Assembly (NCBI GenBank): GCA_038821645.1
Contig: JAWBDT010000013.1
Location: 1 to 55,611 of the forward strand
DNA length: 55,611 bases
Reading direction: 5' to 3'
DNA from: Ignisphaera sp.
Lineage (GTDB): Archaea > Thermoproteota > Thermoprotei_A > Sulfolobales > Ignisphaeraceae
Shown here piece after piece: positions 1 to 50,737 of the stretch (position 1 is the stretch's first letter; every line of letters begins with the position of its first letter). The translations under genes were made by a program, and so were the position numbers. The notes under the pieces were generated by a model that was not told the DNA's origin, did no database searches, and saw only the letters and a program-made list of their open reading frames with translations.

Positions 1-634
1 TTTCTCAAACTTCTCATATAAAACAGATAGATAATTCTGTATTTAGACTTTGATTAGATCCAAGACTAAATACCGTTAAACCAATGATTCCAAGAAAACC
101 CAAGTGATTCAATAAGATTCTCTAGATTCTGTTCAAAACCTTTAAAGGTCTACCTCTATTCAATTTACATAGCTTTAGTTTATGATTAATACTTAATCTT
201 GTTATCTCACCTAGAGCAGATACACTAACACATAACCCAATACCTAGACTAGGGTGACTGAAAATTAATATAGTATTCATTTGTTTAGATAGTTGAAATC
301 TCTAGAACAGATCTCGATAATAGAGTTTGAGAGGAGAAGTTGTTGAAGAAATGTATTCAAGGTTAATAACTATGCTGTTCATCTATAGCGGTAGTGGTTG
401 TCTATGTCCATCATCTAGGTTATTTTAGTTTCTTAGGTTTTCTGATACAGAAATAACCAGAAGACCAAGAATTGAACAATCTATGTATAGTCTATATAGT
501 TTTTTGCAATAGGTTACGATATATACTGAGTCTTCTAACCGTCTTAGATATTCATTAATATCTGCTACATCAATTATGTTGATTAAAGGTTAAGATTTTG
601 CAGAAAATGTATTGTGAGTGTATTGGGTGGTGAT

Positions 635-2461
635 ATGGGTGGAATTTTTGGTATTGTTTCTCGTGATAAACGTAATATTGTTGATATAGTTGTTCGTGGG
701 GTCAAGGTGCTTGAGTATAGAGGTTTTGATGGTAGTGGTCTAGCTGTACTAGTTGATGGAGATATCAAGATATTTAAAGATGCTGTAAAAATCGATATAC
801 TGAAGGAGAGGTATAGACTTAATGAAATCTCTAGTTGGATTGCTTTAGGACATACTAGATATGCTACCCATGGAAAACCGCATAAAGAGAATACTCAGCC
901 TCATAGCGATTGCTATAACCATATAGCAGTTGTTGGAGATGGTGCTATTGCAAATTATGAGAAACTGAGGGACGAGGCTATATTTAGAGAACATAGAGTT
1001 GTTTCACGTTGTGATTTCGAGATTGTTGCTCATCTAATTGAGGATGAGCTTAAGAAAGTTTCTAGTTTCTTAGATGCATTGATTAATGTGGTGAAAAAGG
1101 TCTCAGGCTTCAATAGTTTTGCTGTTCTATATCCTAAATGCAACTGTATTGCTGTATATACATCATTAGCACCAATATTTTTAGGAGCATCAAGTAACTT
1201 ATTTGCGGTATCCTCTGGCAAAGGCGCTCTATATGGTGTAGTAGATTCGTATACTGTTCTAGAGAGAAATGAGGTAGCGATAATTACTGAAGAATGTATT
1301 GAGATTTATAATGCTCTAGATGCTAGAAGAATACAGAAAGACTTTAGAAAACTTGATATAGATCCCAACTATATTGATAAAGACGGATATCCTCATCACA
1401 TGCTTAGAGAAATATATGAAATACCTTACTCTATATCTAGAACAGTATCATCTGTACAGGAGAAGTATCTAACACTTGCAGCAAGACTTATTTCAGATGC
1501 TAAAAACCTCTTCATTATAGGTAATGGAACAAGCCTTCACGCAGGTCTAGTCGCCTCCTACTATTTCTCTGAACTTGCTGACATAAACTCAATTGTTGTA
1601 AGTGCAGCAGAATTCCCGTTATACTATGTAGATAATGTTTCTCCAGGTACTGTAGTTGTAGCTATTTCGCAATCGGGTGAAACAAGAGATGTTATACAGT
1701 CTGTTTATGAAGCTAAGATCAGAGGCGCAACTATTGTGGGTATAACGAATCATATAGGCTCTAGACTAGCCAATCTATCTAACCTCTATCTACCTGTAGC
1801 AGCAGGACCTGAAATCGCTATTCCTGCTACAAAAACCTTCACATCAACACTAGCTCTTCTCTATATGCTATCACTAAAAGCCTCAAGCTATATAGGGAAG
1901 ATGACTGAATCTGAATATAGAGAACGTATAGATGGATTAAGATCTTTTAGCGAAATGCTGATGAATCATATGCATAGAATAGATGTAGAATCATCAAATG
2001 CAGCTAAATATATAGTTGACTGTAGAAGTGGGTACATCACATCAAGAGGCATAACCTATCCAATAGCTCTAGAAGGAGCCTTAAAGTTTAAGGAAACAGC
2101 ATATATCCATGCTGAAGGTGTAGAAACTGGCGAATTTAGACATGGTCCTCAGTCACTGATAGAGAGAGACATATTTACAATATTTCTTGTACCAGTTGAG
2201 AAATCAGCTATACCCTCTACCTATGAGCTTATCCAGCTTGCTCTCAATAGAGGTGCTAAAACAATTGTTATAGGATTCAATATAGAACAACAGCTAGACA
2301 ACATTCAGAAAGGTATCGTGATCCAGGTACCATATTCTGAAAGACATCTAGCACCTATAGTTATGACACTACCGCTTCAGTTCATGGCATATAGATTAGG
2401 TGTATTATTGGAAAGACCTATAGATACACCAAGATATTTATCAAAGACTGTAGCTCACTAG
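635..2461 (+). CDS. glmS: GlmS-like protein (Ntn glutaminase domain + 2 SIS domains) lacking catalytic Cys1; probable GlcN-6-P deaminase/isomerase
   Basis: ATG at 635 after GGTGGTGAT gives MGGIFG (canonical MCGIFG); motifs LEYRGFDGSG, GHTRYATHG, SQSGET, ATKTFTS, LKFKE, GEFRHGP and C-terminal PRYLSKTV. Confidence 0.9.
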   Translation: MGGIFGIVSRDKRNIVDIVVRGVKVLEYRGFDGSGLAVLVDGDIKIFKDAVKIDILKERYRLNEISSWIALGHTRYATHGKPHKENTQPHSDCYNHIAVVGDGAIANYEKLRDEAIFREHRVVSRCDFEIVAHLIEDELKKVSSFLDALINVVKKVSGFNSFAVLYPKCNCIAVYTSLAPIFLGASSNLFAVSSGKGALYGVVDSYTVLERNEVAIITEECIEIYNALDARRIQKDFRKLDIDPNYIDKDGYPHHMLREIYEIPYSISRTVSSVQEKYLTLAARLISDAKNLFIIGNGTSLHAGLVASYYFSELADINSIVVSAAEFPLYYVDNVSPGTVVVAISQSGETRDVIQSVYEAKIRGATIVGITNHIGSRLANLSNLYLPVAAGPEIAIPATKTFTSTLALLYMLSLKASSYIGKMTESEYRERIDGLRSFSEMLMNHMHRIDVESSNAAKYIVDCRSGYITSRGITYPIALEGALKFKETAYIHAEGVETGEFRHGPQSLIERDIFTIFLVPVEKSAIPSTYELIQLALNRGAKTIVIGFNIEQQLDNIQKGIVIQVPYSERHLAPIVMTLPLQFMAYRLGVLLERPIDTPRYLSKTVAH

Positions 2462-2740
2462 AAATACAAACCATTTTAAATCTATATTTTCTGGAATTCC
2501 ACAACTTTACCAAGACTCTGAGACTTAGAATCAATAGCTGGTTCTACTACCGAGGGCTATTCTTCAGAAGGTGCAATATCTAGAGACAATCACATATAAT
2601 GTTTCAATAGAAAGAGGAATTTAAATGCTTAGCTATATACTATATAGGATAACTGGTTAAAGCTCTATAACAAGCTCTATCTACTGTATCATTAGTGGAA
2701 GGATCTTGTGTATTGTAGAGTAGATAATGTAATGCTTAGT

Positions 2741-3952
2741 TTATTTATCTAGTACTTTCTCGCCTTCGATATAGACTTTTCTAATCCTATAGTTTTCATC
2801 TATAGCCACTATATCGGCTAGATACCCTATCTCTATCTTACCTACCTTAAGCTTTGATTCTAGATCTAAGCTTTTAACTGGTATTGTGCTACTCATTTTA
2901 GCTACATCTACTATGTTAAAGCCTAGATCTAGAAGATTTCTAAAAGCTTTATCCATGGTCAGTACGCTTCCAGCTAACACATCTCTGTCAAATAACTTAG
3001 CTACTCCTTGTTCAACACGTATCCTTAGATCCCCAAGACTATACTCACCATCGCTTAATCCTGTAGCTGCTATAGCATCTGTTATCAATACTATTCTATC
3101 TGTACCTGCATACTTTACTACATGTCTAATTATAGCTGGATGGAGGTGTACATAATCAGCTATAATTTCTAGATATACTGAAGGATTCTCGATTAGAGCT
3201 AAAGCTATACCTGGGTCTCTGTGATGAAACTTCTTCATACCGTTGAATAGATGTGTAGCCTTGGTTACACCACTCTCTATAGCCTTGACCCCTTCTTCAT
3301 AAGAAGCATTTGTATGACCAGCACTAACAACTATACCGATCTGTTTTACATAACGGATAAAGTTGATACAGTTCTCAATCTCTGGAGCTACTGTGACTTG
3401 GATCACACTATTGTTAGAAGCTTCAACAAGTTCTCTAAGTTCTTGAATACTTGGCCTCCTGATGTATCTAGGGTTATGTGCTCCAGCCATTTCCTTATTG
3501 ATGTAGGGACCTTCTAGATGGAGACCAAGGATTCTAGCACCATGTACTGGTCTCCACATAGCTTTAGCGTTATGTATAGCTTTACATACAGCTAGAAGAG
3601 TATCGTGAGGTGCAGAAACAGTTGTTGGAGTAAAAGAGGTTACACCGTATTTGACAAGTCTATGCCCAATCTCTAGAAGAGCTTCAGGTTCTGAATTCCA
3701 TGTTACATCAATTCCTTCAACTCCATGTATATGTGTATCAATAAATCCTGGTAAAACAGTATAACCATCTAAATCCTCACTCTCGATGTTTGGATATGGT
3801 GGAGATCCTCTACCTATATCTATGATTCTGCCTCTATCTATCACTACATATCCATTATCAATAACTCCACATTCTCTAACTATTTTAGTATTCCTCAACA
3901 CATACATATACGCAACACTATATCTATATCGTTTTAACCGGTTTACAGTCAA
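2741..3952 (-). CDS. nagA: N-acetylglucosamine-6-phosphate deacetylase (start may be ATG at 3907)
   Basis: PGFIDTHIHG, HLEGPY, GHT, THLFNGM, ITDA, LAGS motifs. Confidence 0.93.
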   Translation of the reverse strand: MTVNRLKRYRYSVAYMYVLRNTKIVRECGVIDNGYVVIDRGRIIDIGRGSPPYPNIESEDLDGYTVLPGFIDTHIHGVEGIDVTWNSEPEALLEIGHRLVKYGVTSFTPTTVSAPHDTLLAVCKAIHNAKAMWRPVHGARILGLHLEGPYINKEMAGAHNPRYIRRPSIQELRELVEASNNSVIQVTVAPEIENCINFIRYVKQIGIVVSAGHTNASYEEGVKAIESGVTKATHLFNGMKKFHHRDPGIALALIENPSVYLEIIADYVHLHPAIIRHVVKYAGTDRIVLITDAIAATGLSDGEYSLGDLRIRVEQGVAKLFDRDVLAGSVLTMDKAFRNLLDLGFNIVDVAKMSSTIPVKSLDLESKLKVGKIEIGYLADIVAIDENYRIRKVYIEGEKVLDK

Positions 3953-3953
3953 T

Positions 3954-4910
3954 CTATACTTCTAGACTCATTATCAAGTAATGCTTTATCCGCGTAATAC
4001 CGGGGACTTGGGTATAGAAGAACAAGTGTGTAGTCCAGGTTACCACAGAGTATCTATGGCCAGCAAGCTTCATTTCGCTTAACGCTCTAAACAGCAAGAC
4101 ACTACCGATACCTAAACCCCTAAACTTTCCATCAACACCTATAGGCCCAAACTCGTTCCTCCCCATTCTGTTATATACAGCAAAACCTATGAACTCGTTA
4201 TTTGTTTCAGCCAACAATATTGATGGAGGATTATTCCTAAATGCGTAAAGAGTCTCTACACCCCAAAACGGGTTACCAAAAGCCTCCTTAACCCATTTAA
4301 CTATAGCCTCTTCATCAGATTCGCTACCTCTTCTAATCGTTATCCCCTTACTTCTTATAGCCTCTTCTATCTTCATGATTCTTCGTGGGTAATAGAATTG
4401 CGTGAGATCAACTTCATAATTCACATTTTCTGAGATCTTCTTAAAGCCTAGTTCTTCGAAGAATTCTATATAGTCTTCATACAGCACGTTTACTCCAGGC
4501 ATGAAATAGAATGGTGCATAAGCATATAGAATCACCTTCTTCTTGCCTAAGCCATCTAGTGAATTCAGGAAGAACTTCATAAGATCTAGCTGTATATTCT
4601 TCAATAGGTCTCTATCTAGATCAGGATCTACAGCAAAATCTTTAACCCATATAGTGTCTCTAGAATTCTCTACAGCCTCTATAGGCTCCTTCGATATATC
4701 TACTCCTACCAGAAACCCTAGAACATGGCCCTTACCATCTATAGCTACATATATTAGATCTTCTCTAGCATTAGGATCTTTAGTCACAAAATTTAGGAAA
4801 GGGTATGTATCTACAGTATCGTAGGTGAATGCTTTATTATGAATTCTACACATCTCTAGAAAAATATTCTTATCTCTCAGCTCCAGATACGTAGATATCC
4901 TATAGTACAT
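3954..4910 (-). CDS. Tandem GNAT N-acetyltransferase
   Basis: C-terminal acetyl-CoA motif FGPIGVDGKFRGLGIG; N-terminal degenerate GNAT (FAVDPD...FFEELGF); 318 aa. Confidence 0.8.
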   Translation of the reverse strand: MYYRISTYLELRDKNIFLEMCRIHNKAFTYDTVDTYPFLNFVTKDPNAREDLIYVAIDGKGHVLGFLVGVDISKEPIEAVENSRDTIWVKDFAVDPDLDRDLLKNIQLDLMKFFLNSLDGLGKKKVILYAYAPFYFMPGVNVLYEDYIEFFEELGFKKISENVNYEVDLTQFYYPRRIMKIEEAIRSKGITIRRGSESDEEAIVKWVKEAFGNPFWGVETLYAFRNNPPSILLAETNNEFIGFAVYNRMGRNEFGPIGVDGKFRGLGIGSVLLFRALSEMKLAGHRYSVVTWTTHLFFYTQVPGITRIKHYLIMSLEV

Positions 4911-5041: not shown

Positions 5042-6748
5042 TTGAATAGAGGTAGACCAATTCTAGTCCCTGAACCTAAGAAGATTAGATTTAGCGGTAG
5101 ATGGTATAATTTCAATGGATTTACGAATATGTCTAGTTTCCTGATGAAGGAGTTTGGTGTTTCTTTAGGTAGATGGGAGATAATTAGAGAAGGAGTTGAT
5201 GTAGATAAAGTCTATATAGTTGTTGAAGAGAATAGGGTTAGATTCTATGGTGATGAGAGAATAGCTTATGCAACAATACTTCAGCTTGTTAAACAGTATA
5301 GAGATAGGTTACCTGAGGTAGAGATCGAGGAGAAGATGAGCTTCAGGTTCAGAGGTTTTCATCTCGATGTTGCTAGAGGAGGTGTTCCTACTGTAGAGAC
5401 TTTAAAGAAAATACTTAGGTTGCTTTTCTTATTGAAGTACAATTATTTTGCACTATACCTAGAAGATCTGTTTCCTTGGAACAAGTATCCAGATATAGGT
5501 GTTCTGAGGGGGAGGTATACTGAAGATGAGCTTAGAGAAGTAGTAGAATATGGTCTCAAACTCGGTATAGAAGTGTTTCCCTCTCTAGAACTCTGTGGAC
5601 ATATGGAGAACATATTATTGTTACCTTCATACAGTATGCTTAGTGAGTGGTGGCACCCTAGAGAAGGGGTGATAAATGTTATCGATAATAGAGCTAGAGA
5701 GTTTGTTCACAATCTTCTTGAAGAAGTTCTGAACTTTTTCCCAGGAAGGTATATACATATCGGTGGTGATGAGGTATGGGCTTTAGGTAGAGGAAGATCT
5801 CTAGATGTAACAAGAGAGTTCAGAGGGCCACAGCTATATGAGGAATACTATAGAGAGCTAATCAATATAGTTAGATCAAAAGGCAAGATTCCTATGATAT
5901 GGGGAGACATGATAATGTCTGCTTACATGAGGGAGGATGAAGCTAGATACTGGAGAAAACTCATAGAGAGCAGTATTTGGAGAGACACAATAATCGTTAA
6001 CTGGGACTATGGTGTTAATCCCAAGAACTATTTTGTGGAGAAGATAAGAATCCTCAGCACAAGAGGATTAAAACAAATAGTGGCTCCAGGTCTCTGGAAC
6101 TGGAATAGATTCTATCCAGACTTTATAACAGCATTAAGCAACATAGAGAGTTTCTTATCAGCAGCTAGAGAAGAAGGTGTAGAAGGTTTTCTAATTACTG
6201 CATGGGGAGACGATGGAGCAGAATGTCTCTTCTCTTTTCTAGAACCTCTACTACTAGCATCAATCGAGATAGCAGAAGGTACTGGTGAATGGGAAGATAA
6301 GTGGGTATCACTAATAGGTGAAGATCCCAAGGTACTCAATGTTAGAAAGATATTCGGTAAAGTTTCTACAGTAGTCCATAGATGGAGAGAGTATTGGGGT
6401 ATATGGCTTCCAAAACATGTGCTATTCAAAACCGATATACTTAAGCTTGTAAAGTACTATAGTAGAGAAGATATAGAAAAACTAGTGCCCCAGCTCGAGG
6501 AAGCTATAAATATGTCGAAAGATGTAGAACTACCACCCGATCTAGACTTCATGAAACGATTCTATATAGCTACACTAAAAGCTATCAAGAACAACATATC
6601 TGTTCAAGATTACATAGAACTCTCTAATATCTATACAAGACTATGGCTTAACGAGAGAAAAATCCAAGGACTTGATGCAATAATCAAAAAGTTTTGGGGT
6701 GCGGCAGGAGTAACAAGAATAGAGAATATCAATGCTCAGGACCTATAG
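5042..6748 (+). CDS. GH20 beta-N-acetylhexosaminidase
   Basis: RGFHLDVAR, ELCGH, catalytic HIGGDE, WGD, NWDY, TAWGD motifs. Confidence 0.9.
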   Translation: MNRGRPILVPEPKKIRFSGRWYNFNGFTNMSSFLMKEFGVSLGRWEIIREGVDVDKVYIVVEENRVRFYGDERIAYATILQLVKQYRDRLPEVEIEEKMSFRFRGFHLDVARGGVPTVETLKKILRLLFLLKYNYFALYLEDLFPWNKYPDIGVLRGRYTEDELREVVEYGLKLGIEVFPSLELCGHMENILLLPSYSMLSEWWHPREGVINVIDNRAREFVHNLLEEVLNFFPGRYIHIGGDEVWALGRGRSLDVTREFRGPQLYEEYYRELINIVRSKGKIPMIWGDMIMSAYMREDEARYWRKLIESSIWRDTIIVNWDYGVNPKNYFVEKIRILSTRGLKQIVAPGLWNWNRFYPDFITALSNIESFLSAAREEGVEGFLITAWGDDGAECLFSFLEPLLLASIEIAEGTGEWEDKWVSLIGEDPKVLNVRKIFGKVSTVVHRWREYWGIWLPKHVLFKTDILKLVKYYSREDIEKLVPQLEEAINMSKDVELPPDLDFMKRFYIATLKAIKNNISVQDYIELSNIYTRLWLNERKIQGLDAIIKKFWGAAGVTRIENINAQDL

Positions 6749-7305
6749 ATACCGTAGCCATGTGAAATGATGTTTAACAATATAGCAGTAGAGTCTAGTT
6801 AAAGACACCTACATATCTCTTAATATATTGGTCACTGTGAGTTGTTTTAAAATTTTGTTGATTTCTGGATTATACTTTGTTATTGTTTTTGTTGGTTTAT
6901 CTACTTTTGTTGTTCATTATCTTATTTTAGAGATGTTTATTTGAGGTGGTATGTTAATGGTTTAAGGTTTATTTAGATAGATTTGTTGGTTAACTATCTT
7001 ATGCTTGAGACTAATGTGTTAAGAAGCTTTACTCTAGTTACTGAATTACGTGTATAACTTATGATGGATTTCATTGCCGTAATTCTATATGATTTACCTT
7101 TGTAGAGAACATGCTTTTGCTAGGTCTTGCTCTTTCCATTGAGTAACCTCTGCATCTCAATCTATGTAGATAACTTAATAAATGTTTTGATAAGGATTTA
7201 TGTAATAGGACTTCTAGTTTGGTTTGAGATTTTAGAGATAGATAAACAGTTTAATACTACTTTAATCTGTTATACATTATATGAATAACTAGTATCGTGA
7301 TATAT

Positions 7306-7689
7306 ATGGTATCTCGCTTTAGGGATTGGTTAAGACAGTCAGAGAGAAATATGGTATCTGCTGTAGCTAACTATCGTGAAGGAATATATGAGGAAGTATG
7401 TTTTGAATCACATCAAGCTGCTGAAAAAGCTATAAAAGCGCTTTTGAATTATCTCAATAAGGAAAGAAGAGGCCATTCTTTGCTATTCCTTGCATCAGAA
7501 GCATCAATTGAAGTTCCAGAAGAAGTTAGGCGATGTATTTTAGATCTAGATAAACACTATATTCCATCGAGGTATCCAGACATATTTGATGAAGGAGCTC
7601 CACTAGACTACTATACTAAAGAAGATGCCGAGAAATGTCTTTCTTGTGCAAATAAGGTAATTGAGTGGGTGAAATCTATTGTTAAATGA
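7306..7689 (+). CDS. HEPN domain protein (HEPN-MNT toxin-antitoxin-like pair)
   Basis: HQAAEKAIKA...GHSL...YIPSRYPD typical of archaeal HEPN; overlaps MNT gene. Confidence 0.88.
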   Translation: MVSRFRDWLRQSERNMVSAVANYREGIYEEVCFESHQAAEKAIKALLNYLNKERRGHSLLFLASEASIEVPEEVRRCILDLDKHYIPSRYPDIFDEGAPLDYYTKEDAEKCLSCANKVIEWVKSIVK

Positions 7690-8077
7690 TTTAAATACAT
7701 TAGTAGAGAAATATAGGAAGAAACTAGCATTAAGACTTGTGATACTCTTTGGCTCTAGAGCAAGAGGAGACTATACAGATAGAAGCGATATAGATATACT
7801 AGTGGTTGCAGATGATCTACCTAAAGATCCTAGAGAATCATTTGCACTACTTCGCGATACTAGTTTCGTAAATGTTAATCCAATTGGCTTCAATACGGAA
7901 AGCTTTCTTAAAAAACTTAAGGATGGTAGCGCATTCGTTATTGAGGTAATAGAGGATGGAAAGATACTATACATAGATAACGAATTCCTAGATAAGGTAA
8001 TGAAAATATATAGAGATGTAAGAAAAAGATACGCTAGACAAGGAAAGACATGGTACTTGATTTCATCGAAACAATAA
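7679..8077 (+). CDS. Minimal nucleotidyltransferase (MNT)
   Basis: LFGSRARGD...SDIDILVV (GS-x10-DxD). Confidence 0.9.
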   Translation: MLNDLNTLVEKYRKKLALRLVILFGSRARGDYTDRSDIDILVVADDLPKDPRESFALLRDTSFVNVNPIGFNTESFLKKLKDGSAFVIEVIEDGKILYIDNEFLDKVMKIYRDVRKRYARQGKTWYLISSKQ

Positions 8078-8120
8078 GGCTATAGATTAAGTTATCTAAG
8101 TGTCTAGGATAGTGTTGCTT

Positions 8121-9053
8121 ATGGCTAGACCAAGGATAATGCTTAGTGAGTGCTTAGGAGTAAAGTCTGTGAGATATGATGGAAACATAGTGTTTGATTC
8201 ATTTATAGAAATACTTAAGAAGTACGTAGATGTTGTACCTATTTGTCCCGAGGTAGGCATTGGGCTTGGGATTCCTAGAAACCCCTTAGTTCTGCGTAAA
8301 GAAAACAACAATATTGAGCTAATTGATACAGGAACAGGATCTATATACACTAAGCTTTTAGAGAAATTCGCTATAGATGTTTTAGACAAGACAGATGTCG
8401 ATGGAGTTGTACTAAAGTCTGCTAGTCCTTCTTGTGGTGTAGGTGATGCTAAAATATATGGACCAGATAGAAGGGTTGTAGGAAAAGGAGATGGGATATT
8501 TACAGCTACAATAAAGAAGCTTATGCCATGTATTCCGATAGAAAGTGAAAAGAGGCTCTATGCTTACGAAATTAGGGTCAGATTTCTGACGAAGATTTTT
8601 TCGTTTGCTGAACTTAGATCAACACTATCTAACTTAAAATCTATTGAGGAACTTGTAGACTTCCATAGAAAATACAAATACCTAATTATGCTACACAGTC
8701 AAGAGAGTTTAAAAAACTTAGGAAGATTAATTGCAAAAAGAAAAGAATACGTATCTGAGGAGCTAGCTAATAGGTACAGAAAGGAGTTTACGAAGGCATT
8801 GTGTAGAAATCCATCACGAAGATCTTACGTGAATGTGTTTATGCACATATACAGTCATTTAAAGAAAGATTTGAATACAAATGAGAGGAGATACATCATA
8901 GATTTGATCGAGAGATACGGAAACTGTAAAGAAAATCTGAAAACCATTATGATATACTTTCGGGGCTTTATACACAGATTTGAGGATAGTTATCTAGCAG
9001 AACAAAGATTTCTCTTTCCATATCCTGAAGAACTAGATTCTATCTCTCAATAA
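8121..9053 (+). CDS. DUF523 (2-thiouracil desulfurase-like) + DUF1722 protein, YbgA-like
   Basis: SECLG..RYDG, CPEVGIGLGIPR, LKSASPSCG; C-terminal FHRKYKYLIM and YLAEQRFLFPYP. Confidence 0.85.
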   Translation: MARPRIMLSECLGVKSVRYDGNIVFDSFIEILKKYVDVVPICPEVGIGLGIPRNPLVLRKENNNIELIDTGTGSIYTKLLEKFAIDVLDKTDVDGVVLKSASPSCGVGDAKIYGPDRRVVGKGDGIFTATIKKLMPCIPIESEKRLYAYEIRVRFLTKIFSFAELRSTLSNLKSIEELVDFHRKYKYLIMLHSQESLKNLGRLIAKRKEYVSEELANRYRKEFTKALCRNPSRRSYVNVFMHIYSHLKKDLNTNERRYIIDLIERYGNCKENLKTIMIYFRGFIHRFEDSYLAEQRFLFPYPEELDSISQ

Positions 9054-12079: not shown

Positions 12080-13618
12080 GTGGCTTCAGATATAGATCCT
12101 TTAACCATAATGCTTGAAAATATTGCTACAGATCCCTACGACATTTTGAAGTCTATTCCAGCTCCATACAAAGGCCCATTTAAACCTTCCTGGAGTTCCT
12201 TGAAGAACTATAGAGTCCCTAAATGGTTTATGGACTCTAGATTTGGTATATTTATTCATTGGGGTGTGTATTCTGTTCCTGCTTTTGGTAGTGAATGGTA
12301 TCCTAGAAACATGTATATACCTGATAGACCTGAGCATAGATACCATGTAGAGAATTTTGGTTCTCTAACCATATTTGGATACAAAGACTTTATACCGATG
12401 TTTACAGCAGAAAACTGGGATCCAGATGAATGGGCGAAACTATTTAAGAAAAGTGGAGCTAGATTTGTTGTTCTTGTTGCTGAACATCATGATGGTTTTG
12501 CTCTATGGGACTCTAGCTACACTAGATGGTGTTCAGCTAGAATAGGGCCTAAGAGAGATATTGTTGGAGAACTTAGAGAAGCTGTTGAAAGACAGGGACT
12601 AGTATTTGGTATATCATATCATAGAGCTGAACATTGGTGGTTCTTTGACCAAGGCATGAAGATAGAATCTGATGTTAAAGACCCAAAGTACTTCGATCTG
12701 TATGGTCCTGCACAACCGGCATCACTAGACCCTAGAGCACCTCCATCAAAAGATAACATCCCTCCAAACAAAGAGTTTCTTATGGATTGGCTCTTCAGGT
12801 TAGTAGAAATTGTTGAAAAGTATCGTCCATGGCTAGTATACTTTGATTGGTGGATTGCAAATCCATCTTTTCAACCCTATCTAAAAGCTTTTGCAGCATA
12901 CTACTACAATAGGTGTTATAGATGGGGTATAGAGCCTGTTATAGTATATAAGCAGAAGGCATTTGAGGAAGGAACAGCAGTACCGGATCTTGCAGAACGA
13001 GGTACGATAAAGACTATATATCCATCTATATGGCTTGCAGATACATCAGTAGACTACAGATCTTGGGGATTTATAAAAGATGCAGAATACAAGTCTCCCG
13101 AAATACTGATAACACATATGGCTGATGTTGTTAGCAAAAATGGAGTATTTCTTCTTAATATAGGGCCTAAACCAGATGGCGAAATAGCTGAAGAAACTAA
13201 AAGAATACTTCTGGATATTGGAAAATGGTTCAAAGTATATGGAGAGAGCATCTATGGTGTAAAACCATGGAAAGTCTATGGCGAAGGACCTACAGAAATA
13301 AGTGAGGAAGGATTCTTCATAGAGAAAAAACTTGTGTTTACTGATGAAGATGTTAGATACACCTTTAGAGAACACTATCTTGGTTATAACCACATATATG
13401 CAATAGTACTTGGAAAACCAAAAGAAGAGATAATGCTAAAGATTTTTACAAAATACATTAAGCTAATAGAAGACGAGATAGTGGATGTAAATGTAGTGGG
13501 TGTTGAGAAGAAAGTAGAGTGGAGTATAGATACAGAAGGCTTAAAAATAAGATTACCAGTAGATGAAATCAAGATATATCCATATGTTATCAGGATTATT
13601 GTTAAGAAAAACACTTAA
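12080..13618 (+). CDS. GH29 alpha-L-fucosidase
   Basis: PKWF..RFGIFIHWG, AEHHDGF, YFDWW nucleophile, LLNIGP. Confidence 0.93.
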   Translation: MASDIDPLTIMLENIATDPYDILKSIPAPYKGPFKPSWSSLKNYRVPKWFMDSRFGIFIHWGVYSVPAFGSEWYPRNMYIPDRPEHRYHVENFGSLTIFGYKDFIPMFTAENWDPDEWAKLFKKSGARFVVLVAEHHDGFALWDSSYTRWCSARIGPKRDIVGELREAVERQGLVFGISYHRAEHWWFFDQGMKIESDVKDPKYFDLYGPAQPASLDPRAPPSKDNIPPNKEFLMDWLFRLVEIVEKYRPWLVYFDWWIANPSFQPYLKAFAAYYYNRCYRWGIEPVIVYKQKAFEEGTAVPDLAERGTIKTIYPSIWLADTSVDYRSWGFIKDAEYKSPEILITHMADVVSKNGVFLLNIGPKPDGEIAEETKRILLDIGKWFKVYGESIYGVKPWKVYGEGPTEISEEGFFIEKKLVFTDEDVRYTFREHYLGYNHIYAIVLGKPKEEIMLKIFTKYIKLIEDEIVDVNVVGVEKKVEWSIDTEGLKIRLPVDEIKIYPYVIRIIVKKNT

Positions 13619-17121: not shown

Positions 17122-18312
17122 TTGATATGGATTAAGTACTACTGGATATGGGTTATACACTCAATTTTCTACAGCTTTGCATTCACATTTTCTACAGCAT
17201 TCTATCAAGCATATGCTATAAGGGTTTTAGGCTATAGTGTAGATGAGTTAGGCAATATAACATTCCTGAATCTTGCAGCAATATCTTTGGGTAGCTTTGT
17301 ATCACCTATTCTTGTAAATAGGTATAGGCATAGAAGAGTTGTTTTATGGAAGGTTTTCACATCGTTAAACATAATTTCGTGGTCGTTATCTGGATTCTCA
17401 GATATTGTATCACGCTATATGTTATTCTTTTACATAGCTTTAGCACAATTTACTGGTGCTATAGGTGGAATGGCTTATTCAGATCTAATAGCAGATATGA
17501 TACCAAAGGAGAAATCTATAAAGATCTTTAGCAAAGTGAACACATATACAACGTTATCTTCATTAGTATCTCTATCTATATCAGTATCTATATTTGTTGG
17601 TCTTGGAAGCTCTATTGTGTCATACAGAATATGCTATTCTATGACTATAGTATCTGCAATAATCTCTGCAGCATTTCTATGGAAAATGAAGGATCTAGTC
17701 CAAAAGAAGAATGAAATGACATCTGTAAAATATGTGATTAAGGTATACAGAGATATTGTTCGCAAAGATGTTGCTAGAGGCTATGTAGTATTCATTTCTT
17801 TATTTACATTCTTTGCTAATATGCCGGCAGCTCTATGGAACTACTACATAATAAAGGTATTCAATGGAACAGAACTATGGATCTCGGTGAATAATATAAT
17901 GAACTTAGTTGCAGGTACGTTAGGTAATTATCTTTTGAGTAAGGTTTCACATAGACTCAATCCGAAGAAGACGATAGTATATTCAATCATACCTATATCT
18001 TTTGTACCTACAATCTTTCTGTTCTCGTCTACATTATCTGCGCAAGCTGTGATGAATCTTTACTCAGGCTTGAGTTGGACGGGATTTAATCTGATTGTGA
18101 ATATCTACAACCTTTATCTCGCCGGAGAGAAAAGAGTATACATGATAGCTCTTCTAGGTGTTCTAAACAATCTAGCAGCTTCTATAGCCTCAAGATTAGG
18201 CTCAGCTATAGCTTCTATAAATCTTCTAGCAATGCAGATGGTATTCGTAATGTCAACCATAGGTAGATTGTCGATGTACTTCTACGCTAGAAAAAACCTG
18301 CCCAACATATAG
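17122..18312 (+). CDS. MFS transporter
   Basis: About 12 hydrophobic segments; RYRHRR loop; IADMIPKE. Confidence 0.8.
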   Translation: MIWIKYYWIWVIHSIFYSFAFTFSTAFYQAYAIRVLGYSVDELGNITFLNLAAISLGSFVSPILVNRYRHRRVVLWKVFTSLNIISWSLSGFSDIVSRYMLFFYIALAQFTGAIGGMAYSDLIADMIPKEKSIKIFSKVNTYTTLSSLVSLSISVSIFVGLGSSIVSYRICYSMTIVSAIISAAFLWKMKDLVQKKNEMTSVKYVIKVYRDIVRKDVARGYVVFISLFTFFANMPAALWNYYIIKVFNGTELWISVNNIMNLVAGTLGNYLLSKVSHRLNPKKTIVYSIIPISFVPTIFLFSSTLSAQAVMNLYSGLSWTGFNLIVNIYNLYLAGEKRVYMIALLGVLNNLAASIASRLGSAIASINLLAMQMVFVMSTIGRLSMYFYARKNLPNI

Positions 18313-18405
18313 CGTAACACTATCCAGTTATCCCCAAGCAGTACATGAAGTAAGTTTTAAGTCTCTGTAACATGCTATCTAGGTGTAATATATGGAGCAG
18401 TAAGG

Positions 18406-19131
18406 ATGAACGAGATGTTGTTTAGAAGACCAAACATATGGGATAAACCTATCACATTGTTTACTGTAGATGGAATTACTGTACATATTGTTCAGTCAAG
18501 AGATTCCACTCATACCATTTTTAAAGCGACATATGGTGCAGAAAAACTTTTGATACCATTGAAGGGGTCTGTAGAGTTTATGGATATATACGCTAACGAG
18601 AAAGATATAATCTATATTCCGAGAAGATATAGCGATGTGGAGTTATCATATGAAAGAGGTTCAGTAATATATTTAATTGAAGTAGTGTCAAATAGCGATT
18701 TCGAGCCTTATGTCAAGAGGTTTAGCGAAGCTCGGTACATAGATGTAGGTGACGGTTTATCGCGTAGGAGAAGGTACATACTAATCGATGTAAATGACAG
18801 ATCAGAAAAGTTTTTAGCTGGATTTACAGAATGTTGCTCAGGTTGTTGGGGTTCATATCCACCGCATAGACATGATGATAAGTATGAGGTATTTGTTTAC
18901 TATGGTTCTGAACATGGTTTCGGAATCCAGCTACTTATTGATGAAGATATTCAAGAAGCATACATAGTGAGAGATTTTGATGTGTTTCTAGTTAAATATG
19001 GATACCATCCAAATGTTTCGATACCTTCAACAAGACTGAATTATCTCTGGGTAATGATATCTGTTAAAGGTGCTAGAGATTTCTCTATGCATATTCATCC
19101 CATGTTTAGCGAAGATAGAAAACATAAGTGA
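18406..19131 (+). CDS. IolB/KduI-family cupin (5-deoxy-glucuronate isomerase-like)
   Basis: WGSYPPHRHD..E, GFG.Q, GYHP, YLWVM. Confidence 0.8.
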   Translation: MNEMLFRRPNIWDKPITLFTVDGITVHIVQSRDSTHTIFKATYGAEKLLIPLKGSVEFMDIYANEKDIIYIPRRYSDVELSYERGSVIYLIEVVSNSDFEPYVKRFSEARYIDVGDGLSRRRRYILIDVNDRSEKFLAGFTECCSGCWGSYPPHRHDDKYEVFVYYGSEHGFGIQLLIDEDIQEAYIVRDFDVFLVKYGYHPNVSIPSTRLNYLWVMISVKGARDFSMHIHPMFSEDRKHK

Positions 19132-45957: not shown

Positions 45958-46638
45958 ATGTTGATTGTGGCTCTAGATCCACCTCTAAATGTTGATGCAG
46001 AGAAATGGGTTACACAGAGATATGAAGCATTAAGGGATATAGTGAAGGGATTCAAGATAGGATTACCAGCTATAGTTAAACACGGTACTAATTGGTTAAG
46101 TAAACTATTTGGAGTTTATGATGGTTTAGCGATAGCAGATCTTAAGCTAGCTGATATAGGAGATGTAATGGCTTTAACAGCAGCAATACTAAGGAATGTA
46201 GGTTTCAATGCTATTATTGCTCACGCATTCGTAGGGTACGAGAAAGGTATAGATGTACTTGCTAAAATATGTGAAAAAGAGGGTATTAAGTTGATACTAG
46301 TTGTGTCTATGTCTCACGAAGGTTCTAAAGAATTCATAGACAGACATATAGATGAATTCATAGATATAGCAGAACGTGTTGGTAGTTGGGGTGTTGTAGC
46401 ACCAGCTACACGACCTAATGTAATACAATTCATTAGGTCAAAAGTTGGATCGAAGATAAAGATAGTTTCACCTGGAGTAGGAGTGCAGGGAGCAGAGCCT
46501 GGGACAGCTCTCTGTGCTGGTGCTGACTATGAGATAGTTGGTAGAGCTATTACGTATTCAGATTTAGGGAAAGTGAGAGAGATAGCATATGCTTTATTAG
46601 AGTCTCAGAAGAAGAGGCTATCTTTATGTCGTGGCTAG
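45958..46638 (+). CDS. pyrF: Orotidine-5'-phosphate decarboxylase
   Basis: VALD, DLKLADIG, SPGVG.QG, IVGRAI. Confidence 0.95.
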   Translation: MLIVALDPPLNVDAEKWVTQRYEALRDIVKGFKIGLPAIVKHGTNWLSKLFGVYDGLAIADLKLADIGDVMALTAAILRNVGFNAIIAHAFVGYEKGIDVLAKICEKEGIKLILVVSMSHEGSKEFIDRHIDEFIDIAERVGSWGVVAPATRPNVIQFIRSKVGSKIKIVSPGVGVQGAEPGTALCAGADYEIVGRAITYSDLGKVREIAYALLESQKKRLSLCRG

Positions 46639-47222
46639 CTTTAGAGCTATTTAGAAAAGGTATGATAAAGATAGGTAAATATAGACTTACTTCGGGTCTA
46701 GAAAGTCCATTCTATATAGATTTGAGACAACTCTACAGCTATCCTGATATTATTGAAAAACTCGTAACAGAATTATGTTCTGCTTGGGATTTAAGTAGCT
46801 ATGATGTTATTGTTGGTATAGCTACCTCAGGTCTAGTGTTAGCGTCATTCATAGCATGTAGGCTTAAGAAACCTCTATCTTATGTTAGGATAGACAGAAA
46901 GATCCACGGTACACAGTCTATTGTTGAAGGTGTTGTAGAATCAAAAAACTGTTTAATAGTAGATGATGTAGCAACTACTGGAGGATCTATAGAACATGCA
47001 TATAACGCCATAAAGGAGGTTAGGGGTATGCCAACAGCAGCATTAGTGGTTGTAGATAGAGAACAAGGAGCAAGAAAGAAGATAGAGTCACTCGGTATGA
47101 AATTCTATAGCTATATTAATGTATCAAACATCTTCAAGTATCTTTATGAAAAAGGATTAATCGATACAAGAACCTATGACGAAGTTATTAACTATATTAA
47201 GCGTTTTAGTCAAGATCTATAG
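46626..47222 (+). CDS. pyrE: Orotate phosphoribosyltransferase
   Basis: LTSG.ESPFYID, RK.HG, IVDDVATTGGS, VDREQG. Confidence 0.95.
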   Translation: MSWLALELFRKGMIKIGKYRLTSGLESPFYIDLRQLYSYPDIIEKLVTELCSAWDLSSYDVIVGIATSGLVLASFIACRLKKPLSYVRIDRKIHGTQSIVEGVVESKNCLIVDDVATTGGSIEHAYNAIKEVRGMPTAALVVVDREQGARKKIESLGMKFYSYINVSNIFKYLYEKGLIDTRTYDEVINYIKRFSQDL

Positions 47223-47254
47223 ACAGTGCCCAAAGAGTTCATCATTGTAGACAG
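47223..47254 (-). ncRNA. Possible C/D-like sRNA half antisense to pyr operon
   Basis: ATGATGA-ACTCTTTGGGCA-CTGT; guide matches 23S 24672-80; D box non-canonical. Confidence 0.35.
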
Positions 47255-47301
47255 AAATGTTTTATAGTTTACAGATAGTAGCATTAGATTTGGGCATAAA
47301 G

Positions 47302-48231
47302 ATGATCACATCATTTAAAAATAGAGATGTGGTATCAATACTGGACTTCACTAGGGAAGAACTCGAGACATTGTTTGAGTATGCAGATAAATTCCGCAAA
47401 GTTGAGGGAAAACTGAATCTACTAAACGGAAAGGTGGTTTCTCTCGCTTTTTTTGAACCATCTACTCGTACAAGGCTCAGTTTTGAAGTAGCAGCAAAAC
47501 GTCTAGGTGCAGATGTTGTATCAATCATAGGTGAGGAAGCCTCCAGTATAGCTAAAGGCGAAAACTTGGCAGACACAATACGTATGCTTGATGCATATTC
47601 CAATATTATAATTCTAAGACATAGATATGAAGGAGCAGCAAAATATGCTGCAGAAATAGCCGAAAACCCTGTTATCAATGCTGGCGATGGTATTCAACAT
47701 CATCCAACACAAGCTATGATCGATCTATATACAGTAAAGACACTCTTCGGATCAATCGATGGATTAGTGTATGTTGTTTTAGGGGATCTTAGATATGGAA
47801 GAGCAGCAATGTCATTCATATATGGTCTTTCTCTATATAAGCCCAAGAAGTTGTATGTAGTTGCTCCTCAACTATTACGTATACGTAACGAAGTTCTACA
47901 AATACTGAAAGAAAGAGGTCTACCTATCGAAGAGAAAAATGATGTGAGAGAAATAATCAGTGAAGCAGATGTTCTATATGTTACACGTATCCAGAGAGAA
48001 AGGTTTCCAGATCCTATGGAGTACGAAAAAGTTAGAGGTTCGTATATTGTTACACTAGATCTTCTAGAGAAAGGTAAGTCTACATTAAAAGTTCTACACC
48101 CTCTACCAAAAGTAGATGAAATAGACCATAAAGTTGATACATCAAGATATACAGCCTACTATCTTCAAGCTAGATTAGGTGTACCAGTAAGAATGTCTTT
48201 ATTATCCCTAGTTTCTGGTGTAGAGATATGA
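47302..48231 (+). CDS. pyrB: Aspartate carbamoyltransferase catalytic subunit
   Basis: [24 protein letters not shown]. Confidence 0.96.
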
Positions 48232-48710
48232 GTTCAGAAAACATACACACGTTGGTGGTTCCAAAAATACTGAATGGAACTGTCATCGATCATATACCAG
48301 CAGGTAGAGCTCTAGACATACTAAAGGTATTGAATATAACTGGAGGAGAAGGCTGGAGAATAGCGGTACTATTGAATGTTGAGAGCAAGAAGTTAGGTAG
48401 AAAAGATATAATAAAAATAGAGCGTAGAAAATTAACTTCAGCAGAAGTAAACGTCATAGCACTCATAGCTCCTACAGCAACTATAAACATTATCGAGAAT
48501 TTTGTTGTAGTCGAGAAGTTTAAGGTAAATGTGCCAGAGGTTATAGAGGGTGTAATTAGATGTCCGAATCCTACATGTATATCGAATAAAGAACGAGAAC
48601 CAGTAAAGTCTAGGTTTAGAACATTATCAAAGGATCAGCTTATATTTCGTTGCGAATATTGTTCAACCATTGTAACTAGAGATGATATACTAAAGCTTAT
48701 CATAAGATGA
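48228..48710 (+). CDS. pyrI: Aspartate carbamoyltransferase regulatory subunit
   Basis: [29 protein letters not shown]. Confidence 0.96.
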
Positions 48711-49495
48711 ATGTTATGTCTATTAAACCTGCCAAAATATTAAGAATAGATAGAATAGCTGAAAATACGTATCTCTTAGCTGTAGAATTATTTACGCATA
48801 TGGACAATATTTCTCCGTTCAATTTTTTTATGGTTTGGGTACCTCGCGTAGATGAAATACCCTTAAGTGTAGCATTTTTGAATAACAACATTATATATTT
48901 TCTATTCAAAGTTAAAGGTCTAGGTACAGAAACACTCTCTAAAATGTGTAAAGGTGAGATAGTAGGTTTAAAGGGGCCTCTAGGTAGAGGTTTTATCGTT
49001 GAAGACTATACGAAAAGTGTACTAGTGATAGCTGGAGGTATAGGTATAGCTCCCATCCCTTTCTTCATATATAGGTCAAAATACAAGAAGCTCGATGTTG
49101 TATGGGGAGTTAAACGAAGAGAAGAACTTTTTGATTTAAATATATTTAATCAAGATATTGGAGATAGGTATAGATTATTTATGGCAACAGAAGACTGTAG
49201 CTATGGTTTTTGTGGAACAGCTTTAGAGAGGCTAAAGAATATTCCACTAGAAGATTATGACATCATATTAGCAGTAGGACCACAACCTATGTTGAAAGGT
49301 GTATGCGAATACATAAGAAACACTAACCTAGAAGCATATGTAGCTCTTGAAACAATGGTTAAATGCGGCATAGGTCTATGTGGTAGTTGCTTCATTAGAT
49401 CATCAAACAAGCTTCTCTGTATAGATGGACCAGTATTTAGATGTGATGAGGTGATACAGCATCTTGGAAAGACTAATAATAGCAAAAACATATGA
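48707..49495 (+). CDS. pyrK: Dihydroorotate dehydrogenase electron transfer subunit
   Basis: GPLGRGF, AGGIGIAP, KCGIGLCGSC...C.DGPVF. Confidence 0.92.
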   Translation: MNVMSIKPAKILRIDRIAENTYLLAVELFTHMDNISPFNFFMVWVPRVDEIPLSVAFLNNNIIYFLFKVKGLGTETLSKMCKGEIVGLKGPLGRGFIVEDYTKSVLVIAGGIGIAPIPFFIYRSKYKKLDVVWGVKRREELFDLNIFNQDIGDRYRLFMATEDCSYGFCGTALERLKNIPLEDYDIILAVGPQPMLKGVCEYIRNTNLEAYVALETMVKCGIGLCGSCFIRSSNKLLCIDGPVFRCDEVIQHLGKTNNSKNI

Positions 49496-50735
49496 AGATG
49501 GTTATTTGAAAGAGATAATGGTGTTAGTTAATAAAGGTATTGTTGAAAGAAGATTTAACTATATCGACAAGAATCTATGTAGAGATTATGAATGTATAGA
49601 TCTTCGTGCTAAAGGCATACTTCTCCCAGGGTTCATAGATATCCACGTACATTTACGTGGACTTAAACTTAGTTATAAAGAAGATGAAGAAAGCGGTACG
49701 AAGGCTGCTTCTAGAGGTGGTTTTACAGCTGTTGTAGATATGCCTAACACTTTACCACGAATAGATAACAAACAAGCTCTTCAAGAAAAAATAGAAGCAC
49801 TTAAGCTAAAGAGTAGAGTTGATTTTGGAATCTATGTATCTCCAGCAAAAGACTATAGGGAAATGTATGACATGTTGTATGAAGAAGGTGTTGTAGGTGT
49901 AAAATTCTTTCCCCAAGATCTTCACCTATTCCCCAAGATCCTCAATATTACTAGTTCCAGAGATCTAAATAGAATAGTGATTGTTCATGCAGAACATCCA
50001 TATATGGTGAATGATTGTGAAGCTGGTTCTAGATGGATGTGTAGACCTATTGAAAGCGAGCTTTCAGCTCTAGATATTGTTCACATGCATGTTAAAGAAA
50101 ATATGAAGATCCATATCACACATATAACAAATGTTCTAACACTATCTTTAGCAAAAAGATATAAATTCACTACAGATACTTGTCCACACTATCTCTACTT
50201 AGATTCTTCTCACGAGAAGGAAATGGGCTGTATAGCTAAAGTAAATCCTCCTCTTAGAACTCCTTCAACAAGATACTCATTATTGAAACTACTGAAAGCA
50301 TTTGATGCAGTTTCCTCTGATCATGCGCCTCACAGTTTCGATGAGAAACTTCTTGATTTCTCGATGTGTCCATCAGGTATAGCTTCTCTAGAATTGACTG
50401 CTTCCTTAATCCTAAACTTAGTAAATTTAGGTGCTATAGATCTAGATGACGCTGTAAAGCTCTTATCTCGAGGTCCCTCCAAAATACTTGGACTCAAGAG
50501 ATGGGGATGTACGTATATTGGTTGTATAGCTAGTTATACTGTAGTGGATATGAATAAAGAATTTCGTGTTGATCCTGAAACATTTTATTCGAAATCTAGA
50601 TTTTCGCCCTACAAAAAGAATGTATTAAAGGGTGTAGCTACAGCAACTATAGTCAGAGGCGGTATTGTTTATATCGATGAAGGATATGAAGAGAAAATCG
50701 AACCTGAACCTTTAACAAAGTTTATGGTGAATTAA
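49464..50735 (+). CDS. pyrC: Dihydroorotase
   Basis: DIHVHLR, DMPNT, CPHYL, KVNPPLR, SDHAPH. Confidence 0.93.
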   Translation: MERLIIAKTYEDGYLKEIMVLVNKGIVERRFNYIDKNLCRDYECIDLRAKGILLPGFIDIHVHLRGLKLSYKEDEESGTKAASRGGFTAVVDMPNTLPRIDNKQALQEKIEALKLKSRVDFGIYVSPAKDYREMYDMLYEEGVVGVKFFPQDLHLFPKILNITSSRDLNRIVIVHAEHPYMVNDCEAGSRWMCRPIESELSALDIVHMHVKENMKIHITHITNVLTLSLAKRYKFTTDTCPHYLYLDSSHEKEMGCIAKVNPPLRTPSTRYSLLKLLKAFDAVSSDHAPHSFDEKLLDFSMCPSGIASLELTASLILNLVNLGAIDLDDAVKLLSRGPSKILGLKRWGCTYIGCIASYTVVDMNKEFRVDPETFYSKSRFSPYKKNVLKGVATATIVRGGIVYIDEGYEEKIEPEPLTKFMVN

Positions 50736-50737
50736 TT

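Follow-up and report, generated by a model that had tools for sequence, protein, structure and literature searches.

A GlmS paralog lacking the glutaminase cysteine, encoded beside nagA in a hot-spring archaeon, as a candidate glucosamine-6-phosphate deaminase

Glutamine-dependent glucosamine-6-phosphate (GlcN6P) synthase, known as GlmS or GFAT (EC 2.6.1.16, TIGR01135), joins a glutaminase domain of the N-terminal nucleophile (Ntn) type to an isomerase domain, and is marked by Cys1, Asn98, Trp74, and a C-terminal tail of fixed length (5 residues). The GlcN6P deaminases GlmD (archaeal, Thermococcus/Pyrococcus) and NagB-II (Shewanella) have a catalytic domain that is homologous and resembles the GlmS isomerase domain, but these are SIS-only proteins of about 320–340 amino acids (aa) without the N-terminal domain (N-domain); the classical deaminase NagB (PF01182) has an unrelated fold. 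GlmS and NagB coexist as a pair in bacteria. Here we describe a 55,611-nucleotide stretch of Ignisphaera sp. DNA (GenBank assembly GCA_038821645.1, contig JAWBDT010000013.1, positions 1 to 55,611; "the window"), in which a gene at 635–2461 encodes a second full-length GlmS copy without the glutamine-splitting cysteine. The protein shares with GlmS the two-domain architecture, length, isomerase residues, and predicted N-domain fold, and it scores above the cut-off of the GlmS hidden Markov model (HMM); however, it fails all four of the marks listed above, it belongs to a separate clade (hereafter Gly1-type) with unlike predicted interdomain packing, and genes of this type are linked to nagA, not to genes for the synthesis of UDP-N-acetylglucosamine. 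Like GlmD and NagB-II, Gly1-type proteins stand in the place of NagB beside nagA; unlike them, the window protein has 608 aa and an N-domain, scores far below the cut-offs of both families, and would have arisen from a full-length GlmS through inactivation rather than truncation. With NagB itself it would share the proposed reaction and pathway position, and the bacterial GlmS and NagB pair would be mirrored by a Gly1-type protein alongside a true GlmS. We found no paper on a Cys-less GlmS in a literature search whose coverage left out most subscription journals.

The features of the gene, all on the forward strand, are as follows.

625–634 (+): Shine-Dalgarno-like stretch GGGTGGTGAT, immediately 5′ of the ATG at 635, read from the sequence
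635–2461 (+): Gly1-type (Cys-less) full-length GlmS paralog, 608 aa plus stop, beginning MGGIFG
635–1360 (+): N-terminal Ntn (class II glutaminase-like) domain, residues 1–242 (Pfam GATase_6/7), predicted to be catalytically dead and folded
638–640 (+): GGT, encoding Gly where GlmS has the Ntn nucleophile Cys1 (Gly in 128/128 Gly1-type and Cys in 138/138 canonical aligned sequences)
857–862 (+): Arg75-Tyr76; Arg75 aligns with E. coli Arg73, and Tyr76 replaces the channel gate Trp74
935–943 (+): G101-D102-G103, replacing H97-N98-G99 of the oxyanion hole in the alignment to E. coli GlmS
1004–1021 (+): SRCDFE, replacing SETDTE in the alignment, with Asp127 (E. coli Asp123) kept
1376–2458 (+): two-SIS isomerase domain, residues 248–608, with the short variable C-terminal tail KTVAH (Pfam, alignment, and model)
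2444–2446 (+): K604, aligned with the Schiff-base Lys603 of E. coli

We favor 635 as the start because GGGTGGTGAT adjoins this ATG. MGG is the N-terminus of most homologs, and the sole longer frame, from a GTG at 614, adds only the Cys-free residues MSVLGGD.

Pfam identified two SIS domains (E 5.9e-44) and, weakly, GATase_6 (1.1e-10) and GATase_7 (7.6e-08); no match to NagB (PF01182) was found in the protein. Among NCBIfam models, glmS (TIGR01135) scored 481.7 bits, above its cut-off of 418.05, whereas the NagB-II model NF046059 reached 121.1 bits against a cut-off of 430 and the GlmD model NF041128 reached 64.5 against 580; the FrlB and AgaS models matched weakly, with the GlmS models scoring far higher. 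HMMER aligned the protein to E. coli GlmS (1jxa/4amv) with E about 3e-82 and 31–32% identity over 604 residues, and this alignment pairs Cys1 of the E. coli enzyme with Gly2 of the window protein. An initial annotation of the window, made from the sequence alone, had read Cys1 as replaced by Gly, HNG as GDG, and TDTE as CDFE, with the SIS-domain residues retained; the alignment agrees on every point, as SQSGET (S345–T350), K484, E487, H503, and K604 (window numbering) are all present. Trp74 is further changed to Tyr and His86 to Gln, and the tail after K604 is TVAH, with 4 residues as opposed to the fixed 5 of canonical GlmS.

We aligned all 269 available sequences of 560–640 residues. At the Cys1 column, 128 rows have Gly (Gly1-type), 138 have Cys (canonical), and 3 have a gap (two truncated sequences and one entered one codon short). 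Asn98 is replaced by Asp in 124/128 Gly1-type rows (Asn in 138/138 canonical rows), Trp74 by Tyr or Phe in 126/128 (Trp in 138/138), and His97 by Gly in 101/128 (His in 136/138); the motif reads GDG in 100/128 and xDG in 124/128 Gly1-type rows, as opposed to HNG in 136/138 canonical rows. His86 is kept in 102/128 Gly1-type rows and is Gln in 19/128. The tail after Lys603 has 5 residues in all 138 canonical rows (SVTVE in 98/138), whereas in Gly1-type rows it has 3–9 residues and 51 variants. Both groups keep Arg73 and Gly99 throughout (128/128 and 138/138) and Asp123 nearly so (127/128 and 138/138); in E. coli GlmS, Arg73 holds the alpha-carboxylate and Asp123 the alpha-amino group of glutamine. 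Nine isomerase-site residues (S303, S347, Q348, S349, T352, K485, E488, H504, and K603) are kept in 124–128 of the 128 Gly1-type rows, and the same nine are kept in the canonical rows, where Ser303 is weakest (106/138).

In a maximum-likelihood tree (IQ-TREE quick, LG+G4; 80 thinned rows, unrooted, trait columns left in), the 36 Gly1-type rows formed one side of a single branch (SH-aLRT 100), which points to a single change of state. Where isomerase domains are 40–50% identical, the mean identity of the N-domains was 0.338 in the clade versus 0.426 in canonical GlmS; within the clade, conservation reaches 95% or more at 21 positions of the N-domain. The N-domain of the clade is under relaxed constraint and evolves faster than that of true GlmS, yet it is far from decaying, and a conserved but relaxed N-domain fits a retained structural or regulatory module. 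As judged from the sequences, the residues dedicated to hydrolyzing the amide and gating ammonia have been lost, the isomerase site, including its phosphate loop, is intact, and the change belongs to a single old clade.

A search of 5.8 billion clustered proteins returned no Cys1 sequence among the best 120 relatives, and those relatives that reach the N-terminus start MGG or xGG. Named sources of these relatives include Ignisphaera, Infirmifilum, Thermofilum, Staphylothermus, Zestosphaera, Acidianus, and Sulfurisphaera, and a search of a library of 1.84 billion representatives added Caldivirga, through a representative, as a source of Gly1-type sequence; when these representatives were searched without a word index, a few more Gly-type representatives outranked GlmS sequences beginning (M/V)CG. 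The public name of the homologs is "glutamine--fructose-6-phosphate transaminase," a label that does not appear to suit what is, on this evidence, a conserved archaeal family that has been mislabeled. One clade member (L078, G257:C6:59355-61142) reads M-S-G-I-F-G and thus carries Ser, not Gly, where the nucleophile would be; Ser is a nucleophile in some other Ntn hydrolases.

The presence of Gly in 128 of 269 aligned sequences rules out a sequencing error at 638, and it is on this conservation, rather than on metagenome contigs, that the authenticity of Gly1 rests. Hot-spring metagenome contigs from three further studies cover positions 500–4000 and differ from the window at 4, 11, and 42 letters; the 40 differences listed between those contigs and the window all fall outside 635–643, and 27 further differences exist beyond that list. 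A near-identical contig (X2) may be the source of the window DNA. At least half of the sampled words of the stretch also occur in hot-spring metagenome runs from seven studies other than that of the possible source sample. One metatranscriptome run (X20), with a small share, yielded short contigs, 90–99% alike, over parts of the gene and nagA; such libraries may contain DNA and these contigs give neither level nor strand, so they are at most a weak hint of expression.

AlphaFold2 (AF2; monomer, 49-row clade alignment, no templates) modeled the window protein with a mean predicted local distance difference test (pLDDT) score of 94.5 and a predicted template-modeling (TM) score (pTM) of 0.94; only the last four residues fell below 50. 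The modeled N-domain superimposed on the E. coli glutaminase domain (1xff_A) with Z 36.5 and a root-mean-square deviation (rmsd) of 1.4 Å over 236 of 238 residues. The modeled C-terminal domain matched GlmS isomerase domains, including 1moq, at 1.9–2.3 Å rmsd, the Pyrococcus furiosus GlcN6P deaminase 2cb0 at Z 40.3 (2.4 Å, 324 residues), NagB-II 8fdb at Z 37.4 (2.6 Å), and tagatose-6-phosphate isomerase and FrlB structures at Z 30–39. At full length, however, the model fit none of the GlmS/GFAT structures compared (TM 0.54–0.57, rmsd 10.7–17.3 Å). The lowest rmsd (10.7–13.5 Å) was to 3ooj, the nucleophile-less full-length C1A laboratory mutant of E. coli GlmS; even there TM was just 0.54–0.57, so the predicted arrangement differs from the mutant form too. 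As a control, the canonical paralog modeled likewise (49 rows; pLDDT 93.9, pTM 0.92) matched 1jxa (TM 0.90, 3.0 Å), 2j6h (TM 0.85, 3.8 Å), and human GFAT-1 (TM 0.88–0.90). The dead N-domain is thus predicted to pack on the isomerase domain unlike that of a channel-forming GlmS, and with this different docking, channeling of ammonia by the N-domain has probably ceased.

The assembly (31 contigs, 97.8% complete; contig C13 begins with the window) holds a canonical full-length GlmS at G000:C1:119916-121685 (−), which is 34% identical to the window protein; it starts TTG-TGC-GGT (M-C-G-I-I-G), has HNG and SETDSE, and ends AKTVTVE. An ORF of 388 aa adjoins it. The second, Cys1-containing glmS that had been proposed as a check was therefore present. 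The lack of a NagB gene, noted earlier for the window, extends to the whole genome: classical NagB (PF01182) had no match genome-wide (control positive in 8 of 14 named genomes), and no SIS-only GlmD-like deaminase was found, the GlmD model matching just the two full-length GlmS genes, both below cut-off. A ROK-family kinase is present on another contig, and no BadF-type N-acetylglucosamine (GlcNAc) kinase was found in the genome. The genes next to the paralog are the following.

2741–3952 (−): nagA, GlcNAc-6-phosphate deacetylase (Pfam Amidohydro_1; TIGR00221, 319.5 bits against a cut-off of 225.65)
3954–4910 (−): GNAT-domain protein, 318 aa (GNAT C-terminal), just upstream of nagA and codirectional with it
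5042–6748 (+): beta-N-acetylhexosaminidase-family protein of glycoside hydrolase family 20 (GH20; Pfam Glyco_hydro_20, 4.8e-25), divergent from the GNAT-nagA pair

The nagA gene is convergent with the GlmS paralog across a gap of about 280 bp. This genome thus has a route to GlcN6P from GlcNAc-6-phosphate and, apart from the window protein, no recognized deaminase for it. The description of the locus as a GlcNAc-catabolic cluster holds in part, as nagA, the GNAT gene, and the GH20 gene are present, but the cluster is small and has no kinase or transporter alongside.

We searched 301 sampled genomes of the same order with the window protein. Matches of at least 412 bits and at least 40% identity that aligned from residue 1 were called Gly1-type; the other group reached at most 375 bits and 38% identity and aligned from residue 3, which left a gap between the groups. 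One genome (G221) was counted as a carrier on a partial match (345 bits, 44% identity from residue 1). Gly1-type carriers numbered 109 of 301, and 103 of these 109 also have canonical GlmS. NagA (E ≤1e-30) was found in 94 of 301 genomes, with the following distribution.

Gly1-type present: NagA found in 72 genomes, not found in 37
Gly1-type absent: NagA found in 22 genomes, not found in 170

In 29 of the 72 genomes with both, the gene and nagA are at most 1.2 kb apart, and in 5 more the distance is 4.5–10.1 kb. Tandem pairs are seen among the 29, as are divergent and convergent ones, and the 29 come from six families (f1, f3, f6, f8, f10, and f13). The gene is also found beyond the order, in 15 genomes (E ≤1e-115) from four further families of the same phylum; in one of these families, nagA lies 24–32 bp upstream on the same strand in 3/3 genomes tested, and in another, nagA is present but distant in 2/2 tested. 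The earlier expectation that Gly1 homologs would be linked to nagA is borne out by the carrier counts (72/109 carriers versus 22/192 non-carriers), by the 29 close pairs, and by the 3/3 tandem arrangements outside the order.

With moderate confidence, we assign the window protein as a reversible GlcN6P deaminase/isomerase that does not depend on glutamine and serves at the NagB step. That the protein supplies this step was the interpretation of the initial annotation, and the evidence above supports it, although the direction, deaminase as opposed to NH3-dependent synthase, is one that we infer. The reaction would be GlcN6P + H2O ↔ fructose 6-phosphate (Fru6P) + NH3, the EC 3.5.99.6 chemistry of the SIS-only GlmD and NagB-II proteins and the second GlmS half-reaction run backwards. 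Along the proposed route, the GH20 enzyme would free GlcNAc, the ROK kinase would phosphorylate it, NagA would yield GlcN6P, and the Gly1-type enzyme would yield Fru6P. On binding of GlcN6P, His504 would open the ring, Lys603 would form a Schiff base, and isomerization via Glu488 would be followed by release of ammonia and Fru6P; the reaction would be reversible in principle, with its direction set by ammonium and sugar-phosphate levels. The N-domain would be retained as a folded module with an alpha-amino-acid-binding Arg73/Asp123 pair. Since that pair is kept and a conserved Asp occupies the position of the oxyanion Asn, a ligand-sensing or purely structural role for the domain is plausible. 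A tentative extension, which we think doubtful as a whole, is that the re-purposed Ntn domain binds glutamine, glutamate, or ammonium unhydrolyzed, making the protein a nitrogen-sensing, allosteric, reversible GlcN6P deaminase/NH3-dependent synthase and the sole route to GlcN6P in the GlmS-less relatives within Ignisphaera.

Several observations weigh against the assignment as a deaminase. The odds ratio of 15 for co-occurrence with NagA (Fisher) comes from related, non-independent genomes, so its p value overstates the association. NagA was not found in 37 of the 109 carriers, and in 5/5 of these that were re-tested (92–99% complete), a nagA HMM gave no match over cut-off; in NagA-less carriers, the gene lies beside Trp/Tyr-tRNA synthetase and orotidine-monophosphate (OMP) decarboxylase genes, a tRNA-editing-domain gene, or a phosphoesterase gene. 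At the loci of 19 relatives, nagA is within about 8 kb in 6 and absent in 13, mostly of the same genus, and most genus-mates have an unnamed 225-aa open reading frame (ORF) on one side of the gene and a dCTP-deaminase-like gene on the other. In the window itself, the convergent orientation means that the gene and nagA do not form one transcript. Three GlmS-less genus-mates (G001, G002, and G012) may run the enzyme towards synthesis, and an SIS-only GlmS-like gene in the cluster of another genome (G174) raises redundancy. The altered domain packing comes from an AF2 monomer prediction alone, and we know of no full-length GlmS fold that has been shown to act as a deaminase.

The same chemistry in the opposite direction would make the protein a GlcN6P synthase that depends on ammonia; such an anabolic isozyme would save glutamine or operate when ammonium is plentiful, and its dead glutaminase pocket (Asp98) may be an ammonium entry site. 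We consider this unlikely, but several of the observations given above favor it, namely the 37 NagA-less carriers with the gene in housekeeping contexts and the conservation, without decay, of the N-domain and its Arg73, Asp123, and Asp98 positions. In addition, four genomes hold the paralog without canonical GlmS: a canonical query found none in G001, G002, and G012 (97–99% complete genus-mates) or in G024 (86%, a family-mate), and G001 retains a 77-residue canonical GlmS remnant with a TAG stop (G001:C16:21894-22121). These GlmS-less relatives carry the Gly1-type gene, two NagA copies, and an SIS-only GlmS-like gene; synthesis may be the direction in which these relatives use the Gly1-type protein, or salvage may supply their GlcN6P, with the two NagA copies as a possible source. 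Against a general synthase role, canonical GlmS is retained in 103/109 carriers, and the gene recurs beside nagA and amino-sugar catabolic genes. Neither the C-terminal tail nor Trp74, which build the ammonia channel in E. coli GlmS, is conserved, and the predicted domain arrangement mismatches that of channel-forming GlmS.

A different substrate is improbable, although it has some support. The candidates are galactosamine 6-phosphate (GalN6P; an AgaS-like reaction to tagatose 6-phosphate), fructosamine 6-phosphate (an FrlB-like deglycase), or GlcN6P/GalN6P epimerization. GH20 enzymes release both GlcNAc and N-acetylgalactosamine (GalNAc), the FrlB and AgaS models match weakly, and tagatose-6-phosphate isomerase and FrlB structures align with the C-terminal domain as given above; by the title of one study, a route from GlcN6P to GalNAc reportedly exists in a Sulfolobaceae species. 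However, every sugar- and phosphate-binding residue of GlmS is kept, and the GlmS models score far above AgaS and FrlB. In three genus-mates, moreover, a galacto branch would already be covered by another gene, which encodes an SIS-only protein of ~355 aa (L084 in G012, L085 in G002, and L086 in G008) that falls below the GlmD, NagB-II, and AgaS cut-offs; GatZ/KbaZ-like, PfkB, and BadF-type kinase genes lie on its flanks, with a GH38 mannosidase gene in G008, and its locus is a candidate galactosamine/tagatose branch. The reported epimerase locus ST2245 of Sulfolobus tokodaii also misfits the position of the paralog.

ST2245, reportedly a GlcN6P-to-GalN6P epimerase, was considered as a possible Gly1-type paralog and dropped on position, a test that depends on the assumed locus numbering. 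In genus g48, about 350–490 kb separate the canonical from the Gly1-type gene in each of four complete genomes; G206, of this genus, holds protein P0120 at 100% identity. In G105, 40 kb searched about 40–80 kb beyond the canonical gene contained no GlmS-like gene and only a PGI/PMI-type SIS protein.

It is very improbable that the protein is a catalytically silent pseudoenzyme that modulates canonical GlmS (e.g., as a heterodimer) or senses glutamine. The loss of the nucleophile while the amino-acid-binding Arg73 and Asp123 are kept, and the coexistence of canonical GlmS in 103/109 carriers, would suit such a regulator, but isomerase catalytic residues kept in 124–128 of 128 rows would be unexpected if it were silent, genomes that lack canonical GlmS still keep the gene, and the protein is just 34% identical to the canonical paralog. 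That it is an ordinary glutamine-dependent GlmS, with a Gly that stems from misassembly, a misread base, or a misplaced start, is scarcely credible: the NCBIfam glmS score and the public names of the homologs are in its favor, but Gly occurs in 128/128 clade members and is correlated with N98D and W74Y/F, the in-frame upstream stretch encodes no Cys, independent metagenome contigs agree, and a true Cys1 GlmS is present elsewhere in the genome.

If the assignment as a GlcN6P deaminase is true, Gly1-type proteins would be a third architecture for GlcN6P deamination, besides NagB and the SIS-only GlmD/NagB-II proteins. Because public names and the curated glmS model accept these proteins, more than 100 thermophilic archaeal genome reconstructions may credit a GlmS that is unable to hydrolyze glutamine and miss a catabolic deaminase, and some genomes would be scored GlmS-positive though canonical GlmS is absent. 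The clade would also be a natural experiment on the fate of an amidotransferase glutaminase domain after its catalysis is lost.

In some relatives, the gene lies in larger amino-sugar clusters. The cluster in G120 (L093) runs from a phosphotransferase system (PTS) EIIC gene through the Gly1-type gene, nagA, the anhydro-MurNAc kinase AnmK, and a beta-lactamase-family protein to a GH84 N-acetylglucosaminidase, and also has a small SIS protein (PRK02947-type). In G177 (L091), a NagK-like kinase, AnmK, and nagA precede the gene, and in G174 (L092) the cluster has PTS enzyme I along with the SIS-only GlmS-like gene mentioned above. PTS components are rare in archaea. These three clusters look like scavenging of bacterial cell-wall sugars, and the AnmK, GH84, GH20, and PTS neighbors would point to hot-spring archaea scavenging both GlcNAc and bacterial cell-wall sugars. 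The gene-nagA pair is adjoined by GlcD-like FAD oxidase and DeoC-type aldolase genes in G103 and by an Opp-type ABC transporter in G105.

In most genus-mates, the locus is also near DUF763 and glycogen-synthase-like genes, and nagA is elsewhere in those genomes. The conserved ORF of ~225 aa, without a Pfam match, immediately precedes the gene in the same orientation in most of them (L034–L045); the window contig begins too near the gene to reveal whether it has this ORF. At L041, a DUF3786 ORF of the same size lies beside the gene, downstream and convergent. Four NagA matches have one in-frame stop (TAG/TAA): G043:C1:886753-887913, G206:C1:2565267-2566373, G029:C6:38203-39357, and G039:C45:6765-7919. 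The stop-bearing NagA adjoins the Gly1-type gene in G043 and G206.

In the window, the GNAT gene ends one base before the start of nagA, which places an acetyltransferase-type gene (3954–4910) beside a deacetylase gene (2741–3952); the 318-aa GNAT protein had no NCBIfam match. A GH29 alpha-L-fucosidase is encoded at 12080–13618 (+), and a major facilitator superfamily (MFS) transporter at 17122–18312 (+) is followed by a KduI/IolB-family protein (stretch 17122–19131, +); taken with the GH20 gene, they suggest that glycans are scavenged. Apart from the GH29 and MFS genes, the remaining window is housekeeping (pyrimidine synthesis, tRNA synthetases, etc.). A pyrimidine biosynthesis operon at 45958–51643 (+) encodes OMP decarboxylase, a phosphoribosyltransferase, and the catalytic and regulatory chains of aspartate carbamoyltransferase, and also holds a dihydroorotase-like gene and dihydroorotate dehydrogenase subunits. 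At 7297–8077 (+), genes for a HEPN protein (130 aa) and a nucleotidyltransferase (132 aa) overlap in a HEPN-MNT toxin-antitoxin-like pair, which is followed by a 2-thiouracil desulfurase/DUF1722 gene at 8100–9053.

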